Origin: Candidatus Nomurabacteria bacterium
GTDB taxonomy: Bacteria; Patescibacteriota; Saccharimonadia; Saccharimonadales; Saccharimonadaceae
NCBI GenBank assembly: GCA_031278275.1
Contig: JAITKW010000066.1
Coordinates: 1 to 42,513 of the forward strand
Direction of reading: 5' to 3'
DNA length: 42,513 nucleotides
The position numbers were made by a program, and so were the translations under genes. The notes beneath the pieces were generated by a model. That model made no database searches. It was not told where the DNA came from and saw nothing but the letters and a program-made list of their open reading frames with translations. This document shows, piece after piece, positions 14,602-42,513 of this stretch (positions within the stretch are counted from its first letter, which is position 1; each line of letters begins with the position of its first letter).

Positions 14602-14605
14602 ATGG

Positions 14606-14677
14606 ATCTTGTTACATAACCCCCCATTCACGGGTACAAAATTGTAACAGCCGGCCATAGACACGGAGCCGTGACAA
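14606..14677 (+). repeat. Copy 'A' of the intergenic repeat family (motif plus imperfect hairpin)
   Basis: atcttgttacataaccccccattcacgggtacaaaattgtaacagcc is about 79% identical, by hand alignment, to the minus-strand 5' half of the 37965-38100 element. On the minus strand the hairpin is followed by UUUU, so it may also terminate recA. Confidence 0.7.
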
Positions 14678-14682
14678 CCGAC

Positions 14683-15782: not shown

Positions 15783-15834
15783 GGTCTTGTTGCATAACCG
15801 AGACAAATATCCAACTTCTCGGCGTGCAATCAAG
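15783..15834 (+). repeat. Motif-family copy forming a 15-bp interrupted hairpin between rpsI and recA
   Basis: ggtcttgttgcataacc is followed by CTTG/TTGCA/CCGAGA ... TCTCGG/TGCAA/CAAG pairing. aattgtgaca recurs at 15851-15860. Confidence 0.5.
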
Positions 15835-15875
15835 TAGCTTCGCAAAAGAGAATTGTGACAAAGACGGCAAGTTGT

Positions 15876-31512: not shown

Positions 31513-32229
31513 ATGGTCAAAATTATTTTATCAGGTTACGATGGGACGTTGCTCTTCGGGAGCATAGAAAAAAATATTAAAGCTGTTCACAAATGGCGCG
31601 CGGCGGGACGTAAGTTTGGGATTATCACTGGGCGTAGTTTGGATAGTATGCAACGACAGCTAGCAAAATATCCGCTGGAGCACGATTATATGGGGCTAAA
31701 TAATGGTGCGGTTATGGTTGATGGCAGCCATAATATATTTTATTACCAAACTATTCACTTTGATTTGGCGTGGGTATTGGCAGATTTTTTGACAAAACTG
31801 CCGGTTGATGAGGTGACTTTTTGGGGTGTTACAGGGAGCAAAATGCATTCTGTGCCGTATGACACCACGAAAATTAGCATGAAAACGGCGAACTTTGAAC
31901 AAGCTAAACAGGTTGCCAAACAACTAAGCGACATGTTCAGCGACAGATTTATCGTTACGCCAATGGCTAAGCAAGCAGATAATTATGGCTATATTGAGAT
32001 TGTGCCGGAGGACACCGGCAAGGAGCGAGCAGCAGCAAGAATCCTTTCAAGAGAAGGCTTGGGTGGTTTTGAGGTCGCAATCATCGGCGAGGCGTACGAT
32101 GAACTTGAGATGATTAAAAAATATAGCGGATATGCGGTAGACAATGCCACACCAGAGGTGAAAGCGGTTGCTACTAGAATATTTTTGTCGGTGGCGGATT
32201 TGATTGATGAACTAATAGCAGAAGATTAA
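31513..32229 (+). CDS. HAD-superfamily (Cof/IIB-like) protein with a degenerate catalytic motif I
   Basis: 238 aa. Motif I reads SGYDGTL instead of DxDGT, motif II is IITGR, and motif IV reads GEAYDELEM instead of GDxxNDxxM. Confidence 0.65.
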   Translation: MVKIILSGYDGTLLFGSIEKNIKAVHKWRAAGRKFGIITGRSLDSMQRQLAKYPLEHDYMGLNNGAVMVDGSHNIFYYQTIHFDLAWVLADFLTKLPVDEVTFWGVTGSKMHSVPYDTTKISMKTANFEQAKQVAKQLSDMFSDRFIVTPMAKQADNYGYIEIVPEDTGKERAAARILSREGLGGFEVAIIGEAYDELEMIKKYSGYAVDNATPEVKAVATRIFLSVADLIDELIAED

Positions 32230-33710: not shown

Positions 33711-34553
33711 CTACCCAAACAAAGGGTGAGGAATCTGGAACTCGTCCAGCAACGGAACCAACCCGTCCCAGACCGCTTTGCGGTCATAAAACGGAAGTCG
33801 GATTTGGTTAAAGACAGCCTCTCCGCTTGGTGTCCCGAGTTGCGGCGCAATGAGCGCCACGAGGTGCTGCGCCGCACCGTATGCGCGCGGGACCAATGCC
33901 CGCACCTGCGCGTCATTAAGGAAAAACACATCTTTCTCAATGAGCTGGTTCGGCTTGCTGACGGCTTTTGCGTTATCACGCCGTGCCAGTAGCTGGGATG
34001 ACGTGATGTTAAGCGTTGCCATCGCTATTACCTCCTCTTGGTCAGCTACGTCCACGACAAAGGGCGCGCCAAACGAGGTAACATCTTTCAGGGAAAAGCC
34101 AACTTCTTCGCTTTCCCCCGCTTCTCCGAACAGGTTGGTTTTCACCAACTCCGCGACAGTGCCAGACTTTTCCTTGCGCAAAAATCCGGCAACGCAGCCC
34201 AAGCAGCCGCGATCGCCACCATTCAACAAGGAACGGCGGATTGCGACATTGAGGCTATCGCTGGTTTTAACGGACAACGATACGCCAGTGGGCTTTTTTG
34301 ACAAGCCCAGCTCGTGCATCGCCATGAACACGGGGTGGTATGCTCGCGTTACGGTTCCATTAGCGAAGTTAATAAGCTGATTCTTGGTGAATCCCTTATC
34401 AATTTGCTCTTGGACTTTGCCGAACGCCTCCTGGAGTTTTGTCTTCTCCAGGTCTTTCAGCTTGCGACCCAGATATTCTTTGACACTGACCAAGCTGTCA
34501 ATGTCAAAGTCATACGTTAACGGTTGGTCGAGCCTTACCCTTTTCAGTTCCAT
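33711..34553 (-). CDS. Hypothetical protein (280 aa) inserted between fusA and tuf
   Basis: The start ATG 34553 (MELKRVRLDQ) is preceded by AAAAGGAGAG. It has its own promoter and terminator. Its sequence is visibly GC-richer than the flanks, with many shadow ORFs in other frames. I recognised no family or motif. Confidence 0.65.
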   Translation of the reverse strand: MELKRVRLDQPLTYDFDIDSLVSVKEYLGRKLKDLEKTKLQEAFGKVQEQIDKGFTKNQLINFANGTVTRAYHPVFMAMHELGLSKKPTGVSLSVKTSDSLNVAIRRSLLNGGDRGCLGCVAGFLRKEKSGTVAELVKTNLFGEAGESEEVGFSLKDVTSFGAPFVVDVADQEEVIAMATLNITSSQLLARRDNAKAVSKPNQLIEKDVFFLNDAQVRALVPRAYGAAQHLVALIAPQLGTPSGEAVFNQIRLPFYDRKAVWDGLVPLLDEFQIPHPLFG

Positions 34554-34606
34554 TTTTTTCTCTCCTTTTCTGAAAAAGAGCAATAACTAATCGTATATCT
34601 GCCGTC

Positions 34607-34644: not shown

Positions 34645-34685
34645 TATAAAATTGGGTTTTGTTGCATAATTATTCAACAAAACCC
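34645..34685 (-). terminator. Hairpin terminator after fusA
   Basis: The minus strand reads GGGUUUUGUUG-AAUAAUUAUG-CAACAAAACCC (11-bp stem) followed by AAUUUUAU. Confidence 0.6.
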
Positions 34686-37379: not shown

Positions 37380-37792
37380 TATTTACCTTCTTTCTTGGCA
37401 CCATACTTGCTACGACCTTGTTTGCGATTTTGTACGCCTTGTAAATCCAACGTGCCACGCACGACATGGTAGCGCACGCCCGGTAAATCTGGCACGCGTC
37501 CGCCGCGCACCAACACAACGGCGTGTTCTTGGAGGTTGTGTCCTTCGCCACCGATATACGCCCAAACTTCCGTACCGTTAGTTAAGCGTACGCGCGCAAC
37601 CTTGCGAAGGGCGGAGTTCGGCTTTTTGGGGGTTTTGGTGGTGACTTTGATGCAAACCCCACGTTTCAAGGGGGCGTTTTGTTGATAATATTTGGTTTTC
37701 AAAGTGTTTTGAATCGTAAGCAACGCAGGCGACTTGCTTTTTTTGCCAGAAGTCTTGCGTGGCTTGCGGATTAACTGATTGATTGTTGGCAT
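37379..37792 (-). CDS. rpsL: 30S ribosomal protein S12 (13-aa insertion; Pro at the Lys88-equivalent position)
   Basis: 137 aa with [30 protein letters not shown] and [13 protein letters not shown]. Its TAATG stop/start overlaps rpsG. Confidence 0.97.
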
Positions 37793-37910
37793 TGATTAAA
37801 TAAGAAAACTTGTTTCTTCCTTTCCTTAATTATTACGCTTGAAATAAACCCAAACGTGATTTTAATAATATAAATCACAGGTGACGAAACCAGCAACTTT
37901 TCGTCCCCGC

Positions 37911-37946
37911 TTGAAACTCTTTATCAAGATGTTATCAGAGTTTCAA
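37911..37946 (-). promoter_or_regulatory. Perfect 10-bp inverted repeat bracketing the rpsL -10 (operator-like)
   Basis: The plus strand has ttgaaactct (37911-37920) and agagtttcaa (37937-37946), separated by 16 nt that contain the -10 hexamer. Confidence 0.4.
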
Positions 37947-37957
37947 AAAGATGTCAA
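37929..37957 (-). promoter_or_regulatory. Sigma70-like promoter of rpsL-rpsG-fusA
   Basis: The minus strand reads TTGACA-17 nt-TGaTAACAT. A leader of about 130 nt contains two 7-bp hairpins (GACGAAA/UUUCGUC and GUGAUUU/AAAUCAC). Confidence 0.6.
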
Positions 37958-37964
37958 TAGCACT

Positions 37965-38100
37965 GGTCTTGTTGTGTAACTACCCATTCACGGGGCTCTT
38001 TAATCTGTGACGACAGATTAAAGCGAGGAATTGCCTGACACCAATAACGATTGGCTGTCACAATTCCGTACCCGCGAATGGGTAGTTACACAACAAGACC
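37965..38100 (-). repeat. 136-nt palindromic element: 30-bp outer stem enclosing two hairpins (three-way junction); MITE/REP-like element or structured RNA
   Basis: Arms 37965-37994 and 38071-38100 are complementary at 29/30 positions. The single mismatch becomes a U:G wobble only in the minus-strand transcript. The inner hairpins are 37998-38023 (11 bp) and 38028-38066 (16 bp with bulges). Confidence 0.8.
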
Positions 38101-38178
38101 CCACACATCAAAATGAGTAATTACGCGACAAAACTCCGTGTATTAAACCCTGCGAAAAAAGAATTATGCGACTAGTTT

Positions 38179-38718
38179 TTACAAATCTACCACTGCGTCT
38201 TCGGTGGCGAGGTCTTCGCCCCTTATGGCTTCGGTGATGTCGTCAAAATCTTCATCTTCGGTAAAATCGTCCACGACCGCCATTTTGTTGGACTTTACGC
38301 CAGTGCCAACGGGGATTTTACGCCCAATAATCACATTTTCTTTGAGTCCGACAAGACGATCGACTTTGCCAGAGATGGCGGCAGAAATCAGGACGCGGGT
38401 AGTGTCTTGGAAAGAGGCGGCAGACAAGAAACTGTCGCTGTAAATCGCTACTTTAGTGATACCAAGCAATAATTGGTTGTATTTGCAAGGAGTTTTGCCC
38501 GCTTTTTCCAATTTTTCGTTGGCTTTGATGGCGGAGGATTTGCTGACAATGTCGCCAATGATGAAGCTGGAATCGCCCGCATCTTCAATCATCACCCGAC
38601 TAAACATTTGCCGAACGATGATTTCAAGGTGTTTGTCGGAAACTTCTTGCCCCTGCGCTGCGTAAATCCTGAGAACTTCGTTGATAATGTAGCGTTCGGT
38701 AGCTTCAATGCCTCTGTA
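38179..38718 (-). CDS. rpoC: RNA polymerase beta-prime, C-terminal 179 codons, in frame with and immediately downstream of the TAA at 38719-38721
   Basis: YRGIEATERYIINEVLRIYAAQGQEVSDKHLEIIVRQ-MFSRVMIEDAGDS..LLGITKV..SFLSAASFQDTTRVL..GLKENVIIGRKIPVGTG. The first ATG is at 38607. There is no ATG, GTG or TTG between the stop and that ATG. Confidence 0.75.
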   Translation of the reverse strand, partial: YRGIEATERYIINEVLRIYAAQGQEVSDKHLEIIVRQMFSRVMIEDAGDSSFIIGDIVSKSSAIKANEKLEKAGKTPCKYNQLLLGITKVAIYSDSFLSAASFQDTTRVLISAAISGKVDRLVGLKENVIIGRKIPVGTGVKSNKMAVVDDFTEDEDFDDITEAIRGEDLATEDAVVDL

Positions 38719-41700
38719 TTACATCAAATCAAGTAGGTTCAGCGAACCTGCGGTCAGGCGGTCACCAGCTTTCACTGCGCCACCGGATTTAACCACAATC
38801 TCCACTTCATCAGGCACCTCAATTTTGACGGGAGCTGACGTGGCACCCACAATCACGATTTCGTCATCATTGGCTTGTTCTACTACGCCATCAATAGGGG
38901 CAACGAGCGGTGCTTTGTCGTCAGATTTGGCGGCGATGATGTCGCCCACGCGCACGGCTTTGCCGTTTTTGACTTTCATCTTGCGACCGTCAAGTTTCAA
39001 ATGTTCTATCTTGCCAGACGAGGGAGTAACTTGGATTATAAAGCGTTTGCCATCTTCCCAAACTTCCACCATGCCGTCAATTGGCGATACGGTGGCTTGA
39101 CCTTTCGGCGTTCGGGCTTCAAACAATTCTTCAACGCGTGGCAAACCTTTAGAAATGGCACCGGAACCAGCCACACCGGACGAGTGGAAAGTGTCCAAAG
39201 TCAACTGCGTGCCAGGTTCGCCGACTGATTGCGCCGCAATCACGCCGACTGGTTGGTTGGCTTCCACCAATTTTTTGGTTGACATATCCAGGCCATAACT
39301 TTTCTTGGACACGCCGTCCAAGTTTTTGGTGGAGAGAATGCTGTAGATTTTTACGCTGTCCACGCTCTCATCATCTTCAATTTCGTCCGCAATCTCACGT
39401 GTGATTAGCTCGCCAGCCTCCACATGCCCAGATACGGTTTCGGCAGCATAGCGCCCAGCCAAACGGTTGGAAAACTCAATCATAGTCAATTCAGTTTCAT
39501 TACGATAAATCGTAAAGCCCTCATCTTCGCCCTCTTCGTTGGTCGTGAAAACATCTTGCGCAACATCAACCAAGCGTCTGGTCAAATAGCCCGAGTCGGC
39601 CGTCTTGAGAGCGGTTGAAACTAAGCCTTGCCTTGCGCCACGTGTTGCCACAAAAGATTCCAGCAAAGACAAGCCTTTTTTGAAATTGGAGCGAATGGGC
39701 AGTTCCATCTCGCGACCATTGACATCAACCATAATTCCAATCATCGCAGAAGCCAGTTTGATATTTGACACGGTGCCACGTGCGCCAGAGTTGACCATTA
39801 AACTGATGTTTGTGTCAACGCTGTCAATTCTGGTTTTCAAAAGGTCGGAGATTTTGTTGTCAACGTTGCGCCAATTGGCAACCGTCAAGTTATGGCGCTC
39901 TTTGTTGGTAATCAACCCCTCGTTATATTGCTCAGCGATTTGTGCCGCTCGCCCCGTACCCTCCGCCACCATTTCAGCCACTTCCGGAAAGTCAACATAA
40001 TCGTCTTTGGATGTGGACACGCCCGCAATCGTTTCGTACTTGAAAGACAAAGCCTTAACCGCATCGGCAATTTTCACGGTCATATCGGCACCATATTTTG
40101 CAAAAATCTTGTTCATGACTTTTTTCAATTGTTTTTTGGTTTGAGCCGAATTGTCAAAGGGATAATCTTCCGGCAATACCTCGTTGAACAGCACTCGCCC
40201 AAAAGTGGTTTCGCGCATTTCACCTTTGAATGGTAATTTAATGGGAGATTGTAGTTGGATTTTTTGATTGTCATAAGCCATCTCAGCTTCATAAACTGAA
40301 GAAAAAGTTTTCAAATCGCCCTTGATTTTGCTGTAAGTGAGGTAGTAAATCCCCAGTACCACGTCTTGTTCAATAGATAAAACCGGCGCGCCGTCAGCGG
40401 GTTTTAATAAATTGTTTACCACACTAATCAAGCCCCCGGCTTCTCTTTGAGCGTCTTCGGATATGGGCAAATGCACCGCCATTTGGTCACCGTCATAGTC
40501 CGCATTGAAACCTTTAGCGACCAACGGGTGCAATTGAATGGCTTGACCGTCAATTAACTTCGGCTGAAAGGCTTGAATGGAGAGCTTGTGGAGGGTCGGC
40601 GCACGGTTAAGCAACACGTATTTGTTAGTAATCACTTCGTCCAAGCCGTCCCAAACCACCGCCTCGTTGGATTCTATCATGTGGTTGGCGTTTTTGATGT
40701 TGTTGGCGTGTTCGTTGCGGATTAACCACGAAATCACGAACGGCCTGAACAGCTCCATCGCCATTTGTTTTGGCAAACCGCATTGATTGATGTTTAGCTC
40801 AGGCCCAACCACGATGACCGAGCGCCCAGAATAATCCACACGCTTGCCCAGCAAGTTCTGGCGGAAGCGACCTTGTTTGCCTTTTAGCATATCAGATAAA
40901 GATTTCAGTTGGCGTTTGTTGTTGGACGATTTGGCGGTACGGTTGCCATGCGTGGCGGAGTTGTCAATAAGGGAATCAACCGCTTCTTGCAACATGCGCA
41001 TTTCGTTACGGCAAATCACGTCTGGAGCGTTCAAGTCCATCAGTTTTTTCAGGCGGTTGTTGCGGTTGATGACACGGCGATATAAATCATTGATGTCTGA
41101 GGTGACGAAACGCCCGCCCGCTAGTGACACAATTGGACGCAAATCTGGCGGAATGACAGGAATAATTGTCAACATTAAATCAGCTGGCTTAATCCCCGCT
41201 GAGCGCATACCTTCCATTACTTTCAACCTTTTGACCAGTTTTTTCTCTTTTTGACCGCGTGCGCTTTTCGCGGTCTCGGTCAATTCCTCAATCGTTTTGT
41301 CAATATTGATTTCGTCCAGCAACTCTTTGATAGCCACGCCACCCATGCCAACCTTAACCAAATCTTCATATTCTTCCGGCAACTCCGCTTTTTCAGATTC
41401 AGTCATTAAACTGTATTTATTTAACTTGGTCAACCAATTTTTTCTTTCCGTATAATCGGTCTCCAAACTTTCCACCTCTTCGGCTTGGGCTTCCGCTAAA
41501 GCCTTGATGTCCGCATTTTTATCTTTAGCAGCGTCTTCGTAACGGATTTTGATAGCTTCGCGCGCCGCTACAGTTTGGGCTTCCAGCTCCTTGAGTTTTT
41601 GGTCTTTGGCCTCATCATCAACGGAAATAATCACAAAACTGGCAAAATAAATCACTTTTTCAATATTTTTCACCGTCATGTCGAGCAAAAGACCGATAGC

Positions 41701-42055: not shown

Positions 42056-42513
<458 letters not shown>

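Follow-up and report, generated by a model that had tools for sequence, protein, structure and literature searches.

In the window analysed here, by which we mean the whole 42,513-nt stretch of DNA, a 136-nt palindrome (37965..38100, minus strand) lies between the end of rpoC and the promoter of rpsL. It is by far the longest near-perfect inverted repeat of these 42.5 kb, and its position raises the question of whether it belongs to the regulation of its neighbours or was brought there from elsewhere. The initial annotation had compared the long outer helix both with RNase III-type substrates and with the terminal inverted repeats of a MITE, and had proposed a count of copies and an analysis of covariation between them as ways of deciding. 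The observations assembled below, which come from sequence comparison, argue that the palindrome is very probably a MITE copy with ends of the IS5-family (IS903-like) type, presumably moved in trans by a transposase of that type.

Followed along the minus strand, in the direction in which rpoC and rpsL are transcribed, the element runs arm, TAC, hairpin P2, TCG, hairpin P3, AGC, arm, its three helices being connected via the 3-nt linkers. The arm nearest rpoC (38071..38100) has the minus-strand sequence GGTCTTGTTGTGTAACTACCCATTCGCGGG and the arm nearest rpsL (37965..37994) the plus-strand sequence GGTCTTGTTGTGTAACTACCCATTCACGGG; each is 30 nt long, 76 nt lie between them, and 29 of the 30 positions pair (97% complementarity). 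P2 (38027..38067, minus strand) consists of 7+5+5 bp with two small bulges and the loop AACG, which becomes CGUU in minus-strand RNA. P3 (37998-38008/38013-38023, minus strand) pairs at 11 of 11 positions around the loop GACG (CGUC in minus-strand RNA). Sequence inspection, an inverted-repeat scan and folding bear out the initial annotation with respect to the arm pairing, the single mismatch at A37990/C38075 and the two inner hairpins. As an argument for a minus-strand RNA this mismatch, A:C on the plus strand and U:G in minus-strand RNA, is weak and no evidence of a function at the RNA level, since a single transition turns every Watson-Crick pair into a wobble on one of the two strands. The same three-way junction is predicted on both strands, at -87.4 kcal/mol (minus) and -84.5 kcal/mol (plus), with z-scores of -11.4 and -14.7, respectively; none of 200 shuffled sequences folded as well. 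Each of the six reading frames of the window copy is interrupted by stop codons, and the element is not spanned by any ORF of at least 40 aa. The arm sequence does not occur a second time within the window. Rfam returned no match for the window at gathering thresholds and only chance-level matches at E <= 10, in agreement with the earlier view that the structure represents no known RNA family, and the contigs L083, L088, L091 and L092, which are introduced below, gave no match either.

The genes next to the element are all on the minus strand. The rpoB gene ends at 42056 and is followed by rpoC (42054-38179), whose stop codon (38179..38181) precedes the element by 78 nt in the direction of transcription. 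Beyond the element come rpsL (37792-37379, ATG at 37792), rpsG (37379-36900) and fusA (36778-34691). The rpsL promoter (37929..37957) has a TTGACA box at 37957-37952, a spacer of 17 nt and a TAACAT box at 37934-37929. It is situated outside the element, with its -35 box 7 nt from the element end at 37965, exactly as annotated. Comparison with other Saccharibacteria indicates that this promoter is genuine: in ten of them a -10 box is followed after 7-8 nt by the invariant leader start AAGAGTTTCA. It is also independent of the element: in L083 and L085, both close relatives, the -35 context is the same, with neither palindrome nor MITE adjacent to it. The homology between the window and L083 begins at most 2 nt from the element end. 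A 9-mer, CCATTCGCG, common to the arm and the L083 promoter spacer is within chance expectation and was discarded. On the minus strand, neither a U-tract nor a terminator-like site is present between 37600 and 38400, and the stem continues into AGUGCUAUUGAC. With no U-tract after the stem, the structure does not qualify as an intrinsic (Rho-independent) terminator, which upholds the original statement that it is not a classic one.

Two observations on the flanking genes deserve mention in their own right. The 5' leader of rpsL is conserved in the window (37875-37919, minus strand) and in L083, L085, L090, L003, L005, L007, L010, L011 and L012. An invariant AAGAGUUUCA about 7 nt past the -10 box is followed by a hairpin, the stem of which differs wholly in sequence between taxa and the 8-14-nt loop of which contains UGCUG in 8 of 8 folded leaders. 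When folded singly, the eight leaders all assumed the same shape, and none matched Rfam; MAFFT/RNAalifold yielded no consensus because the stems do not align by sequence. The hairpin is a candidate ribosomal-protein (S12/S7) leader motif. The second observation concerns rpoC, which has an in-frame TAA at 38719-38721 (minus strand) between NLLDLM and YRGIEATERY, at a position where five relatives encode Arg (CGA, CGC or CGT). Apart from this codon the gene is intact, and its C-terminal piece has a database entry as a protein of its own; searches with the two rpoC pieces for identical proteins gave no match. The TAA could be a sequencing error, a pseudogene variant or an instance of recoding. 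A conserved split of the beta' subunit was considered and dropped, as the short RpoC C-terminal proteins on long contigs come from the error-rich assemblies L086 and L087, in which every gene is fragmented.

Whether the palindrome occurs elsewhere was examined in the nearest relatives, the contigs of which were reached via 90%-identity protein clusters of S7, SecY and EF-Tu. The S12 protein assigns the window to Candidatus Saccharibacteria (Saccharimonadales) and is 90% identical to that of the best species representative. A closer relative is represented by L083, a 24-kb contig with 152 of 159 identical residues in S7 and 95% identity in EF-Tu. In a BLASTN search the core of the element matched this contig twice, with 88.7% identity over 71 nt (E = 4e-16). 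Copy A (L083:1-121) is located upstream of uvrB, the contig starting inside the copy, and copy B (L083:9158-9297) downstream of tuf. Copy C (L088:12288-12428) lies downstream of a sortase gene on a contig from the same sample as L083. One close relative has three homologous copies at unrelated loci on two contigs, and the rpoC/rpsL boundary is not an exclusive site.

Gene callers sometimes lay ORFs over elements of this kind, and for that reason the protein database was searched with translations of the element. Seven more copies were identified as spurious ORFs on other contigs (P0288-P0294), all with different flanks, and tblastn mapped them back onto the copies. They form two subfamilies, P0291-P0294 resembling the window copy and P0288-P0290 resembling copies B and C. 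Additional support for the repetitive nature of the element is provided by the ends of contigs, since assemblers stop at repeats. Three independent contigs break inside copies: L083 in copy A, the Logan contig L001, which starts in the window-copy arm nearest rpsL, and the Logan contig L084, which ends in an arm of copy B. The proposed search for copies has thus yielded dispersed copies both in a close relative and on other contigs.

Wider searches were negative. The exact two-arm pattern had no match in 185,579 reference genomes. Among JGI metagenome contigs, an arm 20-mer was found in L002 alone, a chance match in AT-rich non-coding DNA with no partner arm. Viral contigs contained neither the arm pattern nor the core pattern (0 matches each), and BLASTN found nothing in phage records and one chance 22-mer in plasmid records. 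Copies with these particular arms are thus rare or unassembled. The MITE family is found in a narrow Saccharibacteria lineage. Within the window there is one full copy, and the window contig encodes no transposase. In relatives the element is absent between rpoC and rpsL, after tuf and after the sortase gene; the gene order differs at each of these places, so that the comparison yielded no clean pair of filled and empty orthologous sites with a single target copy in the empty one.

The gene order in fact changes exactly at the element. In the window (37792-38181) rpoC, the MITE and the rpsL promoter follow one another, and the 95%-identical relative (L083 1-2534) has copy A, uvrB and the same rpsL promoter. 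This change suggests a rearrangement at these repeats. The str/S10 order usual for such clusters is also broken in the window by extra genes: a 290-aa ORF (33711-34583, minus strand) to which no function has been assigned is found between fusA and tuf, a place taken in L083 and L084 by two genes without Pfam domains (283 and 282 aa), and a 238-aa gene (31513-32229) is located on the opposite, plus strand between tuf and rpsJ. The GC skew is positive to about 10 kb and then negative to the window end, with a cumulative peak near 8-10 kb. The genes from 2766 onward are all on the minus strand despite this change of skew, which may reflect a change in replication direction.

The arms of the element proved to resemble the ends of an insertion sequence. 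Copy C is 84 nt from an IS end on L088, and that contig terminates in a DDE transposase gene (Pfam PF13737, PF01609). A homologue with 84% identity is encoded by a complete IS on L091 (2254-3383), which is 1130 bp long, specifies a 333-aa transposase, has the ends GGTCTTGTTGCATAATCCCCC and GGTCTTGTTGCACAATCCCC and is flanked by a perfect 9-bp target duplication, AAAACCAAC. The IS was seen in close relatives; the window contig itself is without it. The outer 10 nt of the window arm, GGTCTTGTTG, are identical to the IS terminal inverted repeats, and 13 of 16 positions match the L091 IS end. In copies B and C the match extends further than in the window copy, GGTCTTGTTGCACAA being common to them and the right end of the L091 IS. 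BLASTN revealed no similarity between the core and the IS interior, which indicates that the 76-nt core is probably not IS-derived. On L092 (440-560) two IS copies are arranged end to end with 10 nt between them (...AATAATGCAACAAGACC aaaacgactc GGTCTTGTTGCATAATCCCCC...), an arrangement that represents tandem or nested insertion by the parent IS.

Against NCBIfam NF033579, a model of the IS5 family, the transposase scores 254-256 bits, the cut-off being 140; its identity to proteobacterial relatives is below 40%. IS903-group ends are about 18 bp long and begin with GG..TTGTTG. The IS end GGTCTTGTTGCATAATCCC agrees at 13 of 19 positions with the IS903 end GGCTTTGTTGAATAAATCG, which was checked in E. 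coli next to aph(3')-Ia. Three features, namely the NF033579 match, the 9-bp duplication and the 13/19 end identity, point to a place of the parent-type IS in the IS903 group of the IS5 family, the latter two specifying the group. The element in the window differs from members of that group in that it has no transposase gene and its core is unrelated to the IS.

Sequences of the IS-end type are also found elsewhere in the window. An IS-end 16-mer has six sites, all of them intergenic, where 0.46 would be expected, and none of 100 shuffled sequences reached six. The arms of the element account for two of these sites and the beginning of a half copy for one; the remaining three fall in two small palindromes built from terminal repeats. 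In 14 loci (~160 kb) of other Saccharibacteria no site was detected; L090 has one poor site with three mismatches. The half copy (14604..14682, plus strand; GGATCTTGTTACATAACCCCCCATTCACGGG TAC AAAATTGTAACAGCC...) is decayed and lies in the spacer next to recA in the opposite orientation. The first of the small palindromes (15783..15843, plus strand; ~60 nt) starts with an IS terminal repeat, GGTCTTGTTGCATAAC, that matches at 15 of 16 positions, and is located between recA and rpsI; together with the half copy it occupies the spacers on either side of recA. The second consists of two back-to-back IS-type terminal repeats of 32 nt in all (34654..34685; GGGTTTTGTTGCATAA/TTATTCAACAAAACCC), which match the IS end at 15 of 16 and 14 of 16 positions and directly follow the fusA stop codon. 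A U-rich run, AAUUUUAUAAUU, comes next on the minus strand, and this palindrome looks like a transposon relic that serves as the fusA terminator. In total, a full copy and a half copy of the element, as well as two small palindromes of terminal repeats, are present in the window.

Repeats of another kind accompany some of the copies. Upstream of copies B (L083 9070-9157) and C (L088 12110-12287) there are arrays of four to six direct repeats, YTTGTTGG; the units measure about 27 nt and are similar to the outer portion of the terminal repeat. This motif also appears as SCW/SCC in the spurious ORFs P0288 and P0289, and a weak repeat-like stretch, GGAGTTTTGTCGCGTAAT, precedes the window copy at 38120-38137. 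Nested insertions and protein-binding arrays are candidates for the origin of these arrays.

Covariation was analysed in an alignment of three copies, W (the window copy), B and C. Compensatory changes were observed in nine of the 56 base pairs, of which P2 contributes five, the arms three and P3 one, as compared with 3.0 +/- 1.3 in shuffles and 0-2 when the partners were slid; the fraction of paired cells was 92.8% versus 35-48% with slid partners. The linkers TAC, TCG and AGC and the loops CGUU and CGUC are identical in W and B, and copy B alone folds into the same three-way junction. In copy C another sequence has taken the place of the apical part of P2. Between copies the outermost 10 nt of each arm do not vary, and arm positions 11-30 as well as both inner hairpins vary in a compensatory manner. 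The most conserved part of the family is P3 with its loop, which is nearly invariant in the ten copies seen and is read as the peptide RFNLSSQI(K/E)EP in the spurious ORFs. The codons implied by the peptides of P0291 and P0292 (GLVAQLPIH..., ...SWAVVQQD) would, in comparison with the window copy, give at least one more compensatory arm pair (T-A to C-G) and are compatible with three more. By this comparison, the three-way junction has been maintained between copies by compensatory base-pair changes.

Prokaryotic MITEs are non-coding elements of roughly 50-500 bp that have terminal inverted repeats like those of an autonomous IS and occur in dispersed copies. All four features are found here: the element is small and non-coding, it is bounded by terminal inverted repeats, these repeats match a transposase-encoding IS, and homologous copies are dispersed over unrelated loci. 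The suggestion in the initial annotation that the arms are MITE terminal inverted repeats is borne out by the last two of these observations. Since the arms match the ends of an IS5-type IS, the palindrome is a known kind of element and not a new regulatory RNA. No 9-bp target duplication is present at the window copy, the minus-strand flanks of which are GATGTGTGG and AGTGCTATT, or at copy C, which is flanked by TCTCTTTCC and TTGTTGGAG. This lowers the MITE claim without excluding it, as duplications are often lost in old or rearranged copies. Of 90 copies of the Acinetobacter element MITEAba12, 36 keep their 9-bp duplications (PMC6382973), and target duplications are known to wane with time (PMC10969869). 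Also counting against the MITE reading is the covariation of the inner arms and the core, which is not required of a purely selfish element.

According to the MITE reading, the 30-nt arms would be the terminal inverted repeats recognised by an IS5-family, IS903-like DDE transposase. The enzyme encoded by the 1.1-kb IS of close relatives would act in trans on the 136-nt element, cutting at the GGTCTTGTTG ends and normally leaving a 9-bp target duplication. The two hairpins of the 76-nt core would form the three-way junction together with the paired arms. The element follows the rpoC stop and precedes an independent rpsL promoter, and for that reason it would form a very stable structure in the 3' part of any rpoBC read-through transcript. 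As a helix of 30 bp in that position it might serve as a barrier to exonucleases, as an RNase III target, like the Correia elements of Neisseria, or as a weak terminator. Such effects on rpoC or rpsL RNA, whether by RNase III cleavage, termination or stabilisation, are suggested by analogy with these systems.

The MITE reading is strengthened by comparison with known elements. MITEAba12, whose parent is ISAba12, is likewise short (113 bp) and non-coding, its repeats match those of a co-resident DDE IS that makes 9-bp duplications, the identity with the IS is confined to the terminal repeats, many copies are without duplications, and insertion is intergenic (PMC6382973). It differs in being 78% AT, with a predicted weak fold of about -24 to -27 kcal/mol as opposed to -87 kcal/mol here, and its active movement has been shown, whereas the present element is known from comparison of sequences (PMC6382973). 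Its arms measure 16 nt instead of 30 nt, it is the present element that folds into a three-way junction kept by compensatory changes, and the hosts of MITEAba12 belong to another phylum than the Saccharibacteria of the candidate phyla radiation. Intergenic palindromes that resemble MITEs, measure 100-160 bp and are often close to promoters are also known from Neisseria (Correia elements; PMC2649163) and from enterobacteria (ERIC/IRU elements; PMC10969869). They are co-transcribed with their neighbours, and the long RNA helices formed by their terminal repeats are cut by RNase III or alter mRNA stability (PMC2649163; PMC10969869). No sequence relationship connects them with the present element, and an action of RNase III on the latter is proposed by analogy. 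The Correia elements generate a TA duplication, contain an IHF site and give rise to promoters at their ends (PMC2649163), unlike the element in the window, where the promoter is 7 nt outside and is conserved in relatives without the element.

The covariation and the arrangement of the copies leave room for a structure that is under selection in the host. In such a model, which we regard as possible though unlikely, the three-way junction is the functional unit, either as structured RNA or as a single-stranded DNA module, and has been spread by IS-type ends or has borrowed them; it might insulate operon boundaries, be processed by RNase III, stabilise 3' ends or act as an atypical terminator. 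The compensatory changes in both inner hairpins and in arm positions 11-30, beside an invariant outer 10 nt, and the near invariance of P3 and its loop in ten copies speak for such a model. In each of the four full copies P2 comes ahead of P3 in the direction of the flanking genes, and three of the four are located just past the 3' end of a gene, the contig starting at the fourth, copy A. The shared orientation is offset by the decayed half copy, which is inserted in the opposite orientation, and the conserved core by copy C with its replaced P2 apex; the statistics are thin in any case, comprising three aligned copies and four orientations. A role in termination is suggested by the palindrome of terminal repeats exactly at the expected position of the fusA terminator. 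Copy B, however, sits after a canonical terminator of tuf and is thus not needed for termination there, and the window copy is not followed by a U-tract. Action of the kind envisaged is known for Correia and ERIC elements (PMC2649163; PMC10969869). If the model were true, an IS5-type transposase would have spread a functional module through very small Saccharibacteria genomes, where its place would be at the boundaries of operons, for example as a barrier to RNase III or decay or as a stand-in for a terminator, and where it would also promote rearrangements of the ribosomal-protein cluster.

It is highly improbable that the palindrome evolved in place as a cis-regulatory structure specific to this locus, such as a dedicated terminator or processing site of rpoBC. 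In relatives such as L006 and L012 an ordinary terminator upstream of the rpsL promoter occupies the place taken by the element in the window, and the stem is fully paired in minus-strand RNA. The same sequence is, however, found at unrelated loci, so that the dispersed copies already contradict a locus-specific origin. Moreover, neither a similar sequence nor a comparable palindrome was detected in the rpoC-rpsL or upstream-rpsL spacers of 11 Saccharibacteria species representatives, including those in which rpoC is beside rpsL; the structure is consequently not an old, conserved feature of this spacer, which measures 386 nt here and 24-290 nt in the representatives with adjacent rpoC and rpsL.

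Least credible of all are a REP/REPIN-type repeat moved by a RAYT (an IS200/IS605-like tyrosine transposase) and an assembly artefact in the form of a fold-back chimera, both of which would be in keeping with a multicopy intergenic palindrome in which contigs end, given that the arms match DDE-type IS5-family ends and not a REP motif, that none of the loci fetched has a RAYT gene, that a fold-back yields one symmetric palindrome and not three independent helices, and that copies recur in independent JGI, ENA and Logan assemblies with compensatory differences.

The reading of the palindrome as a MITE copy with IS5-family ends would explain a striking structure beside two essential operons as a copy of a mobile element. 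A literature search found no report of MITEs in Saccharibacteria or Patescibacteria, which is a weak negative. A lineage of Saccharibacteria with very small genomes harbours an IS5-type element and its derivatives at high local density, with four intergenic relics in the 42.5-kb window, within the cluster of ribosomal-protein genes. Contig breaks fall at the copies, as do differences in gene order among close relatives, which matters for assembling and comparing the genomes of this group.
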